Shown here: in pieces, positions 33,959 through 39,731 of the stretch
Numbering within the stretch: position 1 is the stretch's first letter
Layout of the letters: the number at the start of each line of letters is the position of its first letter
Origin: Candidatus Coprovivens sp.
GTDB taxonomy: Bacteria > Bacillota_I > Bacilli_A > RF39 > UBA660
DNA length: 64,000 bases
Direction: 5' to 3'
Assembly (NCBI GenBank): GCA_051892935.1
Contig: JBJFGS010000025.1
Span: 32,001 to 96,000, forward strand
Translations under genes and position numbers: made by a program
The notes under the pieces: model-generated
What the model saw: the letters and a program-made list of their open reading frames with translations, nothing else
What the model was told of the DNA's origin: nothing
Databases searched by the model: none

Positions 33959-35476
33959 ATGTTTAATGTATTAGATTATCTAGAAAATTCTGCAGCAAAA
34001 TATAAAAATAAAATAGCTGTAATTGAAGAAGAAAAAAATATCTCATATGAAGAACTATATCATATGAGTAAAAGAGTAGGATCATACTTTGCAACTAAAA
34101 ATATTTCCAATGAATTAATAGTAGTATTTATGGATAAAGGAATAGACACACTAATATCTTTCTTCGGAAGTGTATATGCAAATTGCTATTATAGTCTAAT
34201 AAATCCAGAGCTACCAGAAGTAAGAATTAATAATATAAAAGAAACAACAAACGTAAAATATATAATTACTAATGATGAATATGAGGAAATAGCTAAAAAG
34301 TATTTTGAAGATTTAGAAATAATAAATATTAAAACTTTGAAAGAAAACGAAATAAACGAAGAAGCACTTTCTATATCTAGAAATAATCATATTGATTGTG
34401 ATCCACTATATGTAAATTTTACTTCAGGTTCAACCGGTATTCCAAAGGGAGTGGTTGTATCACATCGTTCTGTTATAGACTTTATTGATAAATTTACTGA
34501 ACTATTTCACTTTAAGAGTAATGATATAATAGGAAATCAAGCTCCTTTTGATTTTGATGTTTCAGTAAAAGATATTTACTCATCAATAAAGATAGGAGCA
34601 ACATTAGTCATTATTCCTAAAAAGTATTTTTCTAGTCCATCAAAACTATTAGATTATATTTGTGATAATAAAGTTACAACACTAACATGGGCTGTTTCAG
34701 CATTATGTTTAATTACAACATTCCATGGATTAGAATACAAAACCCCTATAACAGTAAATAAAGTTATATTTAGTGGTGAAGTAATGCCATTAAAGCATTT
34801 GAAACAATGGATGGAACATCTTCCAAAAGCAACATTTATAAATGTGTATGGTCCAACAGAAATTACATGCAATTGCACATATCATATAATAGATAGAAAT
34901 AGAGATTACACAGATAAGATTCCGATAGGAATTCCATTTCCTAATGAAAGAATTTATCTATTAAATAATGAAAATAAACTAATTACAACCCCTAATGAAA
35001 CAGGTGAGATTTGTGTAGGGGGAACATGTCTAGGTTTAGGATACTTTAATAATAAAGAACAAACAGAAAAAGCATTTATTCAAAACCCAACAAATGAAAA
35101 GTATATTGATCTAATTTATAGAACCGGAGACTTAGGATACTATAACGAACAAAAAGAACTAATGTTTAGTGGCAGAAAAGACTTCCAAATAAAATATCAA
35201 GGACATCGTATAGAACTTGAAGAAATAGATAAAGCATTAATGAATATTGAAAACATCATTAGAAGTTGTACTATATTTGAGGAGGAAAAGAGTAAATTAT
35301 ACGGTTTTTATATAGGAGACATTGATTCAAAAGAATTACACCATAAACTAAAAGAAATACTACCTATATACATGATACCTACTAAATTAATAAAGATGAA
35401 TGAATTCCCAATGACCAAAAACGGAAAAATAGATCGTAAAAAATTAATGGAATGTAAAGGTGAAAAAAATGATTAA
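33959..35476 (+). CDS. Stand-alone amino acid adenylation enzyme (DltA-like)
   Basis: FTSGSTGIPKG, FDFDVS, YGPTE, YRTGD, GRKDFQIK..GHRIEL, NGKIDR. Confidence 0.92.
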   Translation: MFNVLDYLENSAAKYKNKIAVIEEEKNISYEELYHMSKRVGSYFATKNISNELIVVFMDKGIDTLISFFGSVYANCYYSLINPELPEVRINNIKETTNVKYIITNDEYEEIAKKYFEDLEIINIKTLKENEINEEALSISRNNHIDCDPLYVNFTSGSTGIPKGVVVSHRSVIDFIDKFTELFHFKSNDIIGNQAPFDFDVSVKDIYSSIKIGATLVIIPKKYFSSPSKLLDYICDNKVTTLTWAVSALCLITTFHGLEYKTPITVNKVIFSGEVMPLKHLKQWMEHLPKATFINVYGPTEITCNCTYHIIDRNRDYTDKIPIGIPFPNERIYLLNNENKLITTPNETGEICVGGTCLGLGYFNNKEQTEKAFIQNPTNEKYIDLIYRTGDLGYYNEQKELMFSGRKDFQIKYQGHRIELEEIDKALMNIENIIRSCTIFEEEKSKLYGFYIGDIDSKELHHKLKEILPIYMIPTKLIKMNEFPMTKNGKIDRKKLMECKGEKND

Positions 35477-36629
35477 TTTTGAAAAAATAGCCAAAGAATA
35501 CGGAACACCAACATTCATATATGATATTTCAACATTAAAAAAGAGAATATCATATCTAAAAGAAAATTTACCAGAAAACATTAATCTTGTATATGCTGTT
35601 AAAGCAAACACATTTATAATCAAAGAATTAGAAAAAGACGTAGAAAGATTCGAAATATGTTCAAAAGGTGAATTCGATATATGTAATAAACTTAATATCG
35701 ATTACAAAAAAATGGTCATCTCCGGTGTCAACAAAGATGACGCATCAATAGATGAAATGATTTCAAACTATAAAGAAATAGGCAAATATACTATAGAATC
35801 AGTTAATCAATATAAACTTTTAAAAGAAAAGTGTGAAAAATATAATAGAAATATTAACGTTTTAATAAGACTTACATCAGGAAACCAATTTGGTGTAAAT
35901 GAAGAAGAAGCAATCGATATATTAAAAGAAAATAATGAATTTATTAATATATCAGGATTTGAATACTTTTCCGGTACTCAAAAACATTCAATAAAAAAGA
36001 TTAACAAAGAAATTGATTACTTAGTAGAATTCGTTAATAAAGTTGAACAAGAACTAAATATATCAATCGAAGAAATAGAATATGGACCAGGATTCCCAGT
36101 TTACTATTTCCAAGATGATGAATTTGCTGAAGATGAATTTCTAAAAGAAGTTTGTATAGCCTTAGAAAAAATGAAGAACAAAAAAATATCTTTAGAATTA
36201 GGACGTAGTATAGCAGCCAGCTGTGGTTACTACTTAACAAAAGTAGTTGATATGAAAACTAATAAAAACGGCAATCACATAATTTTAGATGGCGGAATAA
36301 ATCATCTAGTATACTATGGTCAAACAATGGCAATGCGTATTCCAAAATACAAACTATTACCCGAGAAAGAAGATACAGAAGAAACTTATAACCTATATGG
36401 TTCATTATGTACAATAAACGATATAATAATTAAAAGTTTAAAAACTAGAAAACTACAAACAGGTGATTTATTCGTTTTTGAAAACGTCGGAGCATACTCT
36501 ATAACAGAAGGAATTGCACTATTCCTTAGTAGAGACATGCCCAAAGTTATATTATACGACGAAACAAATGAATCAAAATTAATAAGAAATACAATAAAAT
36601 CAAGTGAAATTAATTGTCCAAAGTATTAG
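35469..36629 (+). CDS. PLP-dependent decarboxylase, fold type III (LysA/BtrK/VinO-like)
   Basis: YAVKAN (PLP Lys), GPGF, ELGRSI, DGG, GSLCTIND, GAYS. Confidence 0.88.
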   Translation: MINFEKIAKEYGTPTFIYDISTLKKRISYLKENLPENINLVYAVKANTFIIKELEKDVERFEICSKGEFDICNKLNIDYKKMVISGVNKDDASIDEMISNYKEIGKYTIESVNQYKLLKEKCEKYNRNINVLIRLTSGNQFGVNEEEAIDILKENNEFINISGFEYFSGTQKHSIKKINKEIDYLVEFVNKVEQELNISIEEIEYGPGFPVYYFQDDEFAEDEFLKEVCIALEKMKNKKISLELGRSIAASCGYYLTKVVDMKTNKNGNHIILDGGINHLVYYGQTMAMRIPKYKLLPEKEDTEETYNLYGSLCTINDIIIKSLKTRKLQTGDLFVFENVGAYSITEGIALFLSRDMPKVILYDETNESKLIRNTIKSSEINCPKY

Positions 36630-36643
36630 AAGGAGTGAGTTAT

Positions 36644-36874
36644 ATGGAAAAATTAATTGAAATATTAGAGGAACTAAACCCAGATGTTGATTACAACACA
36701 ACAGAAAACTTAATAGATGGAAGATATTTAGATTCACTAACAATCTTATCATTAGTAGCAGAAATAGAAGATGAATTTGATGTAGAAATACCAACAGTAG
36801 AAATAATACCTGGAAATTTTAATTCAGCAAAGAAAATTTGGGAACTAATTAAAAAACTAAAAGAGGAAGAATAA
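36644..36874 (+). CDS. Acyl/aminoacyl carrier protein (DltC-like)
   Basis: LDSL phosphopantetheine site, EDEFDVEI, NFNS. Confidence 0.92.
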   Translation: MEKLIEILEELNPDVDYNTTENLIDGRYLDSLTILSLVAEIEDEFDVEIPTVEIIPGNFNSAKKIWELIKKLKEEE

Positions 36875-38463: not shown

Positions 38464-38472
38464 GTGATCATA

Positions 38473-39408
38473 ATGAAAAATATTTTAAAAAGCATAATAT
38501 TTGTAACAATATTTATCCTAATCCTAGTAATTTTAACTTTTATACTATTGCCTAGTAAAGACATATTAGAATTTGGTGTATACAATATTTCAAAATATGA
38601 GATACTTGGTGAGAAAAGAGATACAATCGATGTCGTAGCAATAGGAGATAGTCTTGTATATAGTTCATTATCTCCTATGGAAATATGGAACGAATATGGA
38701 TATACAGCTTTTGATAGTGCCGAGCCAGCTCAAATAATAGAAAATACATACAAAAGTGTCGATATAGCTATAAAAAGTCAACATCCAAAAATAATACTAT
38801 TAGAAGCAAATGTAATTCTAAGAGATCCAAAAAATCAAAACAAATACACTAGACTATATAGAGAAAATAAAGACTTTAATCCATTAGGTCTACACCATAA
38901 TAACTGGAAAAACTATATTACATATGGAGATAAGTCAGAATGGATAAATGTGTACAAAGGTTTCAAATTCATTACCAAAATAGAGCCTTCAAAAAACAAA
39001 GCATATATGAAACCATCAAAAGAATTAAGAGTAATACCAAACAACAACCTAAAAGTATTCAATAAAATCGTATCACTATGTCAAAAAAACGATGTTAAGC
39101 TAGTTTTAATAAGCTTTCCAACTCAAACATCTTGGGGATACAAAAAACATAACACAATAGCTAAAATTGCCTCAGAAAACAATTTAGAATTTATTGATTT
39201 AAATCTAATAGATTTAGGAATTGATTGGCAAATAGATACTAAAGATAATGGTTCACATTTGAACTATCGCGGAGCTCTAAAAGCAACAAAATATATAGGA
39301 GAATACCTAAGCAAACTAGAAATGTTAGAAGATAAAAGAAAAAATCCAGAATACGAATCCTGGAATAAAGCTTATGAAAAATATATAAAAACGGAAGCAA
39401 TGGCATAG
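38473..39408 (+). CDS. Membrane-anchored SGNH protein (DltD/AlgJ-like acyltransferase)
   Basis: N-terminal TM; GDSL nucleophile motif; DNGSHLN. Confidence 0.82.
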   Translation: MKNILKSIIFVTIFILILVILTFILLPSKDILEFGVYNISKYEILGEKRDTIDVVAIGDSLVYSSLSPMEIWNEYGYTAFDSAEPAQIIENTYKSVDIAIKSQHPKIILLEANVILRDPKNQNKYTRLYRENKDFNPLGLHHNNWKNYITYGDKSEWINVYKGFKFITKIEPSKNKAYMKPSKELRVIPNNNLKVFNKIVSLCQKNDVKLVLISFPTQTSWGYKKHNTIAKIASENNLEFIDLNLIDLGIDWQIDTKDNGSHLNYRGALKATKYIGEYLSKLEMLEDKRKNPEYESWNKAYEKYIKTEAMA

Positions 39409-39731
39409 TCACCATCATGAGATATAGATAAAGAAATATTACTAAAATTGTAATCTTCTTTAATCTTACCTTGAAAGATAAAATAAGGTGCACCATTCAT
39501 ATTGTGACTTACTATAATATCCTTTAAGGAATAATCACTTATTCCTTTTTTTATTGCTTTTAAAAATGCCTCCTTAGCAGCATAAATACCAGCTATAGAA
39601 GCTAAAGAATAATCACACTTTTTCAAATAATATAATTCAATATCATTAAAATTATCATTTAAAAACTTATTATTCTTAGAAATACTTTTAAATCTATTAA
39701 TTTCAACTAAATCAATACCATTAGATATCAA
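39372..39731 (-). CDS. acpS: Holo-ACP synthase
   Basis: GIDLVEI, AAKEAFLKA, G.P, LSISHDGDYAIA; convergent with and overlapping the SGNH gene. Confidence 0.93.
   Translation of the reverse strand: MISNGIDLVEINRFKSISKNNKFLNDNFNDIELYYLKKCDYSLASIAGIYAAKEAFLKAIKKGISDYSLKDIIVSHNMNGAPYFIFQGKIKEDYNFSNISLSISHDGDYAIASVFIYFS

Follow-up and report, generated by a model that had tools for sequence, protein, structure and literature searches.

What does a relative of diaminopimelate decarboxylase do in an operon that otherwise recalls the D-alanylation (Dlt) pathway of Gram-positive envelopes? The question is raised by a six-gene cassette at positions 33959 to 39761 of the window, by which we mean the whole 64,000-nucleotide stretch analyzed here (C25:32001-96000 of a 1.81-Mb Candidatus Coprovivens genome in 53 contigs, 92% complete). 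Five co-directional open reading frames (ORFs) on the plus strand encode an adenylation (A) enzyme, a fold-III pyridoxal phosphate (PLP) decarboxylase, a small carrier protein, and a membrane-bound O-acyltransferase (MBOAT), as well as an SGNH-fold protein, and a sixth, convergent ORF encodes the holo-carrier-protein synthase AcpS. An earlier note on this DNA had described such an operon, and the ORFs, domains, and predicted fold bear it out. It had placed the locus at 33959 to 39731; the start stands, and the true end is 39761, 39731 being a start that lies within the last ORF.

On balance, and with a confidence slightly above even, we favor the reading that the module decarboxylates an amino acid on its carrier protein and then exports the aminoacyl group to an envelope polymer in a Dlt-like manner. 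The sections below present the conservation of the cassette, the placement of its enzymes, and the residues on which this reading depends, and they weigh the rival explanations where the relevant evidence appears.

The cassette is conserved as a unit

The five genes stay together across a wide range of genomes. Within the genus, the decarboxylase occurs in 3 of 24 other genomes, and the three loci, each 4.2 kb long and ending there, carry the genes for the A enzyme, the decarboxylase, the carrier, and the start of the MBOAT. A scan of genome contigs returned 13 loci with a decarboxylase match. Twelve of these (L012-L023) belong to uncultured gut or rumen metagenome-assembled genomes labelled Bacilli, Firmicutes, Tenericutes, Erysipelotrichaceae, or Clostridia, and in them the A, decarboxylase, carrier, MBOAT, and SGNH genes are colinear as far as the contig extends; in L016, it stops just past the decarboxylase gene. 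The thirteenth, a Treponema locus (L024, 21% identity), has only a LysA-like gene and was set aside as unrelated.

When 399 genomes of the phylum were scored with a profile built from 92 decarboxylase-family representatives, 10 proved to hold the family, our own included, and all five genes were present in each of the nine other, distant genomes. Three cassette genomes (G319, G350, and G415) each consist of one closed contig and may derive from cultured isolates. Three gene orders occur among these nine, including MBOAT-SGNH-A-decarboxylase-carrier (three genomes) and SGNH-MBOAT-A-decarboxylase-carrier (one). At one locus (L048), a lipoprotein-like gene lies between the decarboxylase and carrier genes, which we took as an insertion. 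The metagenome set added 80 loci at 40-64% identity. Counting each gene only where the flanks were long enough, the A enzyme adjoined the decarboxylase in 64/65 loci, the carrier in 77/77, the MBOAT in 42/47, and the SGNH protein in 36/44. The earlier claim of a ligase-decarboxylase-carrier trio is thus upheld, and the survey of co-occurrence extends it to all five genes in the distant genomes and in most of the metagenome loci.

Two natural fusions join the A enzyme directly to the decarboxylase: P0271 (943 aa), which has a 55-aa low-complexity linker and represents 19 member sequences, and P0272 (906 aa). Both keep the A4 and A5 motifs. In the representative library, the decarboxylase matched 287 clusters at E≤1e-30. 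Because the genes remain together through rearrangement, which we regard as the strongest sign, the cassette is a conserved module and not a chance neighborhood.

As a separate observation, three decarboxylase-family proteins of 939-1046 aa (P0143, P0273, and P0274) are fused to C-terminal transglutaminase-core domains, and P0143 also has surface Ig-like domains. None of the three has pathway domains in its extra part, and such a union of surface-type domains with a PLP enzyme of cytoplasmic type could be a gene-call artefact.

Dlt and LysA names come from matches far below cut-off

We searched the cassette proteins with Pfam and NCBIfam profiles, using the curated NCBIfam cut-offs to define DltA, DltB, DltC, and LysA. 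The best-named models are DltA, LysA, DltC, and DltB, and each match falls far below its own cut-off. The A enzyme (33959-35476, plus strand, 505 aa; AMP-binding, 209 bits in Pfam) scores 293 bits with the DltA model TIGR01734 (cut-off 559.85) and 304 bits with NF003417 (cut-off 476). The decarboxylase (35460-36629, plus strand, 389 aa when read from the GTG of the listed ORF; probable start, as in orthologues, at ATG 35469) contains the Pfam domains Orn_Arg_deC_N and Orn_DAP_Arg_deC and scores 168 bits with the LysA model (cut-off 297.9); it also has a weak Ala_racemase_N match of 24.9 bits. The carrier matches PP-binding with 24 bits and the DltC model NF003464 with 36 (cut-off 68), and the MBOAT (36874-38463, plus strand, 529 aa; Pfam MBOAT) scores 147 bits with the DltB model TIGR04091 (cut-off 375). 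Two further models are likewise far from their thresholds: TIGR03098, an exosortase-A-associated ligase, with the A enzyme (186.6 bits, cut-off 592) and TIGR03099, an exosortase-A-associated decarboxylase, with the PLP enzyme (165.5 bits, cut-off 478).

Taken at face value, the best names would describe ordinary D-alanylation, in which the A enzyme loads D-Ala and the PLP protein is a racemase or has an unrelated role. We consider this very unlikely. The Ala_racemase_N match and an xFSGE motif in the A enzyme that resembles the xFCGE motif of DltA speak for it, as do the names themselves; the distance of the Dlt models from their cut-offs speaks against it. So does the PLP protein itself, which has both decarboxylase domains and a conserved Cys loop and whose relatives in the Protein Data Bank (PDB) are all decarboxylases, and the genome encodes a true alanine racemase elsewhere (321 bits). 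The substrate pocket, discussed below, adds to the case against D-Ala.

Automatic annotation conceals the system, as the earlier note had warned for the names dltA and lysA. Close homologues are publicly named 'diaminopimelate decarboxylase', 'alanine racemase', or 'hypothetical', and matches in the ESM Atlas carry automatic names only (putative diaminopimelate decarboxylase, alanine racemase, hypothetical, SGNH).

The decarboxylase is a LysA paralogue nearest to BtrK

The decarboxylase has the alanine-racemase fold (fold III), with the PLP lysine Lys48, an LCT..D loop, and a GGxxH specificity-helix motif. The family alignment shows little or no variation at K48 (at least 90%), C317 within LCT..D, E246, R249, and Y346, and the enzyme should for this reason be active. 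In a PDB search with the single sequence, SbnH (6knh), several LysA enzymes, and BtrK were matched at similar strength (E 7e-26 to 2e-22), whereas the profile of 92 family sequences ranked BtrK first (248 bits), ahead of SbnH (219) and the best LysA (204). The earlier note had warned that a lysA annotation would be misleading and had proposed comparing the enzyme with LysA and BtrK; the comparison, made here by profile score, favors BtrK.

Sequence motifs point the same way. The family and BtrK have in common GGxHH, where the LysA of Aquifex reads AGMNDLIRP; the LCT..D loop, where it reads CETGD; and aromatic-x-GTQ, where it reads H-x-GSQ. The parts of PMC7857480 on which we draw place BtrK, SbnH, AcsE, FigC, and MccE in one clade with diaminopimelate decarboxylase, identify the GGxHH region as the specificity helix, and describe the non-LysA members as decarboxylating an alpha-amino acid moiety that is tethered via its side chain to a larger partner. 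For BtrK, the same source gives this substrate as glutamate on the 87-aa carrier BtrI.

The genomic setting agrees. The cassette decarboxylase is the only lysA-like gene of the host genome, in which dapA had no match at 92% completeness. In 4 of 5 larger genomes that contain the cassette, a separate true LysA (435-477 bits) co-exists with the cassette copy (145-166 bits), and we therefore place the cassette enzyme, by its sequence, as a LysA paralogue with another job. A complex prediction of the decarboxylase dimer with the carrier scored 0.03, which counts neither for nor against binding.

One of the genomes surveyed holds a third LysA-like gene (G244:C23:169052-170191; 139 bits, below the cut-off) beside its true LysA and its cassette copy, and this gene may represent a second related system.

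An invariant lysine in the predicted pocket suggests loading before decarboxylation

In the PDB search, the A enzyme matched DltA (208 bits) and an LgrA module (204) ahead of beta-aminoacyl-ACP ligases (137-170). It is a stand-alone enzyme, DltA-like but not DltA. The earlier note had likened the logic of the trio to VinN/VinL/VinO, but the enzyme itself stands no nearer to the beta-amino-acid ligases of the VinN type than it does to DltA or to domains of nonribosomal peptide synthetases (NRPSs). The best match among plasmid records, a cluster on a Paenibacillus cellulosilyticus replicon (A, GNAT, carrier, KASIII, and MBL genes), has unrelated gene content and was dismissed as a relative.

The A enzyme contains the string FDFDVSVKD, with D200 and K204. 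This is the lysine after the A4 motif that had been singled out earlier as compatible with an acidic substrate, and the string is indeed present. We predicted ten pocket positions (D200, V201, K204, T243, I270, S272, V296, C304, N305, and K490) by placing them with the core motifs FDxS, xxGE, and NxYGPTE and the A10 lysine; the internal count is consistent with GrsA numbering. The pattern D-V/I-K-x-x-S-x-C-N-K recurs in 23/23 orthologues from genomes and 68/68 from metagenomes, down to 40% identity, and the lysine is thus invariant in 91/91. A pattern kept to this extent would mean that one substrate is conserved across the family.

A comparison with DltA sharpens the picture of that substrate. 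According to the portions of PMC4176424 used here, Asp-197 of the Bacillus cereus enzyme holds the amino group, and Cys-269 at the bottom of the pocket sets the selectivity for D-Ala. If positions are matched by the offset of -3, which is constant in the PDB match, Asp-197 would be kept as D200 and Cys-269 changed to S272. Both this serine and the invariant lysine argue against D-Ala as the substrate. The lysine instead suggests that the substrate still has a second carboxylate when it is loaded, and our main argument for decarboxylation after loading is that an invariant pocket lysine expects such a carboxylate. Decarboxylation by a fold-III PLP enzyme requires the departing carboxylate to share its carbon with the amine, which would put the thioester on the side-chain carboxylate, as in VinN/VinL/VinO and BtrJ/BtrI/BtrK.

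The order could also be reversed, with free Asp converted to beta-alanine, Glu to 4-aminobutyrate (GABA), or diaminopimelate to lysine before loading by the A enzyme and export by the MBOAT and SGNH proteins. LysA, the best-known relative of the decarboxylase, takes a free substrate, the lysA model does match at 168 bits, and both the clustering of the genes and the A-decarboxylase fusions would fit either order. Neither beta-alanine nor GABA, however, would offer the pocket lysine a partner, and a lysine substrate would be repelled by it. The missing dapA match, a family profile nearer to BtrK than to any LysA, and the position of the decarboxylase gene, always between the ligase and carrier genes, also count against free-substrate decarboxylation, and we judge it unlikely.

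A further alternative starts from the same residues. Asp might be loaded via its alpha-carboxylate, and the PLP enzyme would then strip the beta-carboxylate on the carrier to give alanyl, possibly D-Ala after reprotonation, without free D-Ala. An amine-anchoring Asp together with a pocket Lys is typical, in NRPS codes, of acidic amino acids activated at the alpha position, and the fold of the PLP enzyme is common to alanine racemase. We nevertheless find this route highly improbable: BtrK and SbnH, the closest relatives of the PLP enzyme, act on alpha-carboxylates, and the genome already has an alanine racemase. Beta-decarboxylation is not known to occur with fold III, the known aspartate 4-decarboxylases being of fold-type I.

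The carrier has a dedicated AcpS

The carrier ORF spans 36614-36874 on the plus strand from a TTG (86 aa), and the start used in orthologues is ATG 36644, which gives a protein of 76 aa (36644-36874). The phosphopantetheine serine lies in a DSL motif (codon 36734-36736), and an NFNS motif is invariant in an alignment of 18 sequences. The host genome has one PP-binding match, which is this carrier, and one ACPS match, which is the cassette acpS (39372-39761, minus strand, 129 aa; 66.9 bits with TIGR00516, cut-off 59.8), the sole phosphopantetheinyl transferase found there. There is no ketoacyl synthase match in the host genome; for this reason, and because the cassette carrier is the sole PP-binding match, we see no sign of fatty-acid synthesis, and the host presumably takes up its lipids.

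The acpS gene adjoins the cassette in 9 of 17 related loci, where it is the only recurrent neighbor. Across 24 genomes of the genus, ACPS occurs in five: all three that hold the cassette, where it shares the contig and lies no more than about 4 kb away, and two of the 21 without it, one by a weak match and one in a 64%-complete genome. These counts are descriptive only, as the genomes are related. Because the carrier is the only visible AcpS client in the host genome, acpS belongs to the module and is not a mere neighbor. The convergent orientation given in the earlier note stands; its view of the gene as a neighbor is extended here to module membership.

The export half pairs a predicted self-shuttling MBOAT with an SGNH protein

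The core of the MBOAT (residues 145-420) aligns to DltB (6bug and 8jem), including the RWHxSL motif and the WHG histidine. Beyond this core, the protein has about 110 additional C-terminal residues with two hydrophobic helices, up to its terminus ...GPGYIPVDPIYADF. The last of these residues form the hexapeptide PIYADF (38443-38460, plus strand), an acyl-shuttle motif of the FxYxxF type. A tail of the form x[IVLM]YxxF is present in 20/20 complete orthologues and in 51/53 metagenome orthologues; of the other two, one conforms if a terminal Y is allowed and one departs from the motif. The first position of the motif is mostly Pro, not Phe. We saw no separate small DltX-like ORF with the motif in the operon, the motif being fused to the MBOAT.

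Published work gives these features a possible function. The sections of PMC12148441 consulted here describe the invariant Tyr in the C-terminal FxYxxF hexapeptide of DltX and of PatA as an acyl shuttle to the SGNH partner, place the motif on two additional helices in MBOATs other than DltB, and present the non-Dlt MBOAT/SGNH systems as using an acyl-CoA donor and no carrier protein. By analogy, the tail Tyr is predicted to carry the acyl group, and with a shuttle tail fused to the MBOAT, DltX would not be needed. The protein is thus not of the DltB type but has two extra helices and a shuttle tail of its own. As far as its sequence indicates, the module would therefore join a Dlt-type donor, the carrier protein, to a PatA-type self-shuttling MBOAT.

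The SGNH-fold protein (38464-39408, plus strand, 314 aa; predicted to be membrane-anchored by an N-terminal helix) had no Pfam or NCBIfam match at E≤0.01. An AlphaFold2 (AF2) model built with 17 orthologues reached a mean pLDDT of 85.8, and Foldseek matched it to SGNH hydrolases with probability 1.00, the best hits being TesA and sialate O-acetylesterases and PatB appearing at ranks 47-50. The nucleophile motif G61-D-S63 is present; G61, S63, and H265 are invariant, and D261 is nearly so. From this model, the protein is predicted to be the last transferase to the acceptor. Its sequence does not place it in the DltD family.

A proposed pathway and its weak points

We propose that AcpS would first prime the 76-aa carrier. 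The A enzyme would then activate an amino-dicarboxylic acid via its side-chain carboxylate, most likely L-Asp and secondarily Glu, and load it onto the carrier, with D200 holding the amine and K204 the free alpha-carboxylate. The BtrK-like decarboxylase would strip the alpha-carboxylate from the tethered substrate, leaving an omega-aminoacyl thioester, with beta-alanyl favored and 4-aminobutyryl the other candidate. At the cytoplasmic face, the carrier would give up its acyl group to the MBOAT, which would place it on the Tyr in its C-terminal PIYADF tail. Outside the cell, the tail would in turn acylate Ser63 of the SGNH protein, which is anchored in the membrane. Finally, the SGNH protein would esterify an envelope polymer, probably teichoic acid, and so place a cationic group on the surface of a lineage without canonical Dlt. 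There is precedent for the middle steps: in the parts of PMC11284099 relied on here, VinO acts only after the thioester has formed, and FlvN takes Asp.

Within this pathway, we would put beta-alanyl at roughly twice the chance of 4-aminobutyryl, a preference that comes from reasoning and not from evidence. A free 4-aminobutyryl thioester lactamises readily, and in butirosin biosynthesis a gamma-glutamyl group serves to mask it. Because this thioester cyclises when free and the cassette contains no masking (amino-protecting) enzyme, Asp and beta-alanyl are preferred over Glu and GABA.

Several points weigh against the pathway as drawn. The proposed identity of the substrate rests on a pocket placed by core motifs rather than by an alignment to GrsA. 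The A enzyme falls outside the VinN clade, so that activation of a side-chain carboxylate would be an independent invention. A lysine at pocket position 239 also occurs in NRPS domains that activate Glu via the alpha-carboxylate, and activation of that kind would leave nothing for the fold-III enzyme to decarboxylate. The decarboxylase of the window reads GGINH, as against the family consensus GGIHH. In the export half, the SGNH protein has no sequence relation to DltD that Pfam or NCBIfam could detect, and DltD is not among the Foldseek matches listed to rank 50. Some loci also depart from the five-gene pattern: five of the 47 metagenome loci with room for an MBOAT gene (L130, L131, L132, L140, and L141) have the A-decarboxylase-carrier trio and no adjoining MBOAT or SGNH gene, and a further metagenome locus (L124) has no adjoining A enzyme. 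In such loci, the trio may also feed other acceptors, an unlinked transferase, or another pathway. The two that were inspected, L130 and L140, are each flanked by genes for adenylosuccinate synthetase and a SEC-C-motif protein, and the neighbors of L130, L140, and L124 (housekeeping, chemotaxis, and surface genes) give no functional hint.

The host envelope and the acceptor

These departures also bear on the acceptor. The first half of the pathway could be as proposed while the MBOAT and SGNH proteins acylate something other than a wall polymer (membrane glycolipid, capsule, exopolysaccharide, or protein), or the trio could feed another pathway in some hosts. Such an outcome seems to us improbable, though it has points in its favor: no acceptor is encoded in the cassette, which counts against our pathway as well; acpS is the only conserved neighbor; the 5/47 loci lack an adjoining MBOAT; and the sub-cut-off matches to TIGR03098 and TIGR03099 (187 and 166 bits) are to families tied by name to exopolysaccharide loci.

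The host genome argues for a wall polymer. It contains murG (278 bits) and three LtaS-like ORFs (680-715 aa) that have a sulfatase domain. It also has three TagF-like genes for CDP-glycerol glycerophosphotransferases, clustered upstream of the window at C25:16598-23452, about 43 kb before the operon. From these genes we conclude that the host has a wall, probably with teichoic acids, and the TagF-like genes are candidate genes for synthesis of the acceptor. Beyond NRPS-unrelated ligases, the host genome yielded no further dltA-like or dltB-like genes, and none of 121 genomes sampled from the class reached the DltA cut-off, so the cassette is the only Dlt-like system seen in its host. Moreover, the characterized MBOAT/SGNH pairs covered in the cited parts of PMC12148441 modify envelope glycopolymers. 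We continue to prefer export of the decarboxylated aminoacyl group to an envelope polymer, with teichoic acid as its probable form.

Gene junctions and neighborhood

The cassette genes are tightly packed, every junction being an overlap or a gap of at most 14 nt. The A and decarboxylase genes overlap by 8-17 nt, the carrier stop and the MBOAT start have one base in common, the MBOAT and SGNH genes abut, and the last 37 nt of the SGNH gene are shared with acpS. Before the A gene lies an AT-rich intergenic region of 189 nt that contains TTGCAT...TATAAT and ends in a Shine-Dalgarno-like AAGGTGG (33948-33954, plus strand), 4 nt 5' of the first ATG. A promoter scan of the window gave fewer sites than its shuffled controls, and a promoter before the A gene is thus not established. 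The promoter and terminator scan was uninformative, and an Rfam search of the window gave no match. Of the sequencing runs listed for the locus, none was RNA, and none contained at least half of the query words.

The surroundings contain several genes that we record in their own right. The gene immediately upstream of the operon encodes a macro-domain protein (33233-33769, plus strand, 98 bits), and one 3 kb upstream encodes a Fic/DOC protein (30105-30713, plus strand); neither is recurrent at other loci. Between them, a 510-aa protein (31052-32584, plus strand) has a ubiquitin-family domain at residues 325-394 (PF00240, E 5.4e-10; Rad60-SLD, E 5.6e-9) and hydrophobic stretches in its middle and at its C-terminus. 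A eukaryote-like ubiquitin fold is unusual in a surface-type protein of a gut or rumen bacterium. Downstream, two membrane proteins (41701-42312 and 43405-44433, plus strand) have no Pfam match, and the N-terminal 150 residues of the second are very rich in lysine and asparagine.

Implications

D-alanylation sets the surface charge of Gram-positive bacteria and thereby governs how well they resist cationic peptides and how they interact with the host. In this gut and rumen lineage, where canonical Dlt was absent from the sampled genomes, some members carry in its stead a conserved module, which is expected to attach a different amino acid. Whether beta-alanyl or 4-aminobutyryl esters take the place of D-alanyl here, and thereby make up a third envelope-acylation architecture that is carrier-fed, uses a self-shuttling MBOAT, and edits its cargo on the carrier, is a more ambitious claim, which we regard as plausible at somewhat less than even chance.

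If it is true, many Bacillota-type bacteria of the gut and rumen bear beta-alanyl (or 4-aminobutyryl) esters on their teichoic acids or on some other polymer of the surface. Such a cationic chemistry would be new, and its stability and recognition would differ. There would then be a new envelope decoration, on-carrier decarboxylation would extend beyond antibiotic biosynthesis, and carrier-dependent and self-shuttling MBOAT mechanisms would prove to be combinable. A widespread misannotation of the lysA and dltA kind ('DltA', 'diaminopimelate decarboxylase', 'hypothetical protein') would also be corrected. The module is small and self-contained, with six genes including its own AcpS, and is thus directly reconstitutable.

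Each part of the system is of a known kind, and the combination is apparently new. In a limited collection of full texts without supplements, we found no Dlt-like system that contains a decarboxylase, no beta-alanyl or GABA esters of teichoic acids, and no combination of carrier feeding, editing by a decarboxylase, and a DltX-less self-shuttling MBOAT.

Comparison with known systems

The nearest overall likeness is to the Dlt pathway (DltA, DltC, DltB, DltX, and DltD). Both have a stand-alone A enzyme, a small carrier, an MBOAT, an acyl-Tyr motif, and a membrane-anchored SGNH protein, and the predicted product of both is a cationic ester on an envelope polymer. The cassette differs in the PLP decarboxylase between its ligase and its carrier, in scores below cut-off with all Dlt models, and in a predicted pocket whose Lys and Ser replace residues of DltA, among them Cys-269. 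It also lacks DltX, the motif being fused to an MBOAT about 110 aa longer, its SGNH protein has no DltD signature, and its acpS is part of the module.

The export half is closer to O-acetylation of the PatA/PatB type, known also for alginate, for cellulose, and for secondary cell wall polysaccharide (SCWP), with which it has in common the two extra C-terminal MBOAT helices, the Tyr hexapeptide, and a separate SGNH partner, as these are described in the parts of PMC12148441 cited above. The model of the cassette SGNH protein matches PatB in the fold search. Whereas the PatA/PatB systems in those parts of PMC12148441 use acyl-CoA and no carrier, the cassette has a ligase, a carrier, and AcpS, and it would move an aminoacyl rather than an acetyl group. 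Its hexapeptide usually begins with Pro, not Phe.

The donor half resembles BtrI/BtrJ/BtrK, VinN/VinL/VinO, and the FlvN-type systems, in which a ligase, a stand-alone carrier, and a fold-III decarboxylase act on a dicarboxylic amino acid tethered via its side chain. Those are antibiotic pathways that feed transferases or polyketide synthases, not a membrane MBOAT. BtrJ is an ATP-grasp enzyme. The cassette has no amino-protecting enzyme, and its A enzyme is not nearest to the VinN type. LysA has the fold, clade, PLP lysine, and catalytic Cys loop in common with the cassette decarboxylase, in which, however, the CE.GD and ..R.. specificity elements are replaced; the cassette enzyme also scores below the equivalog cut-off, and its host has no dapA match.

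Lastly, the exosortase-A-associated pair of TIGR03098 and TIGR03099 offers a parallel in its co-occurring AMP-ligase and fold-III decarboxylase tied to envelope polysaccharide loci. The cassette scores far below the cut-offs of both families and belongs to another phylum and genomic context.

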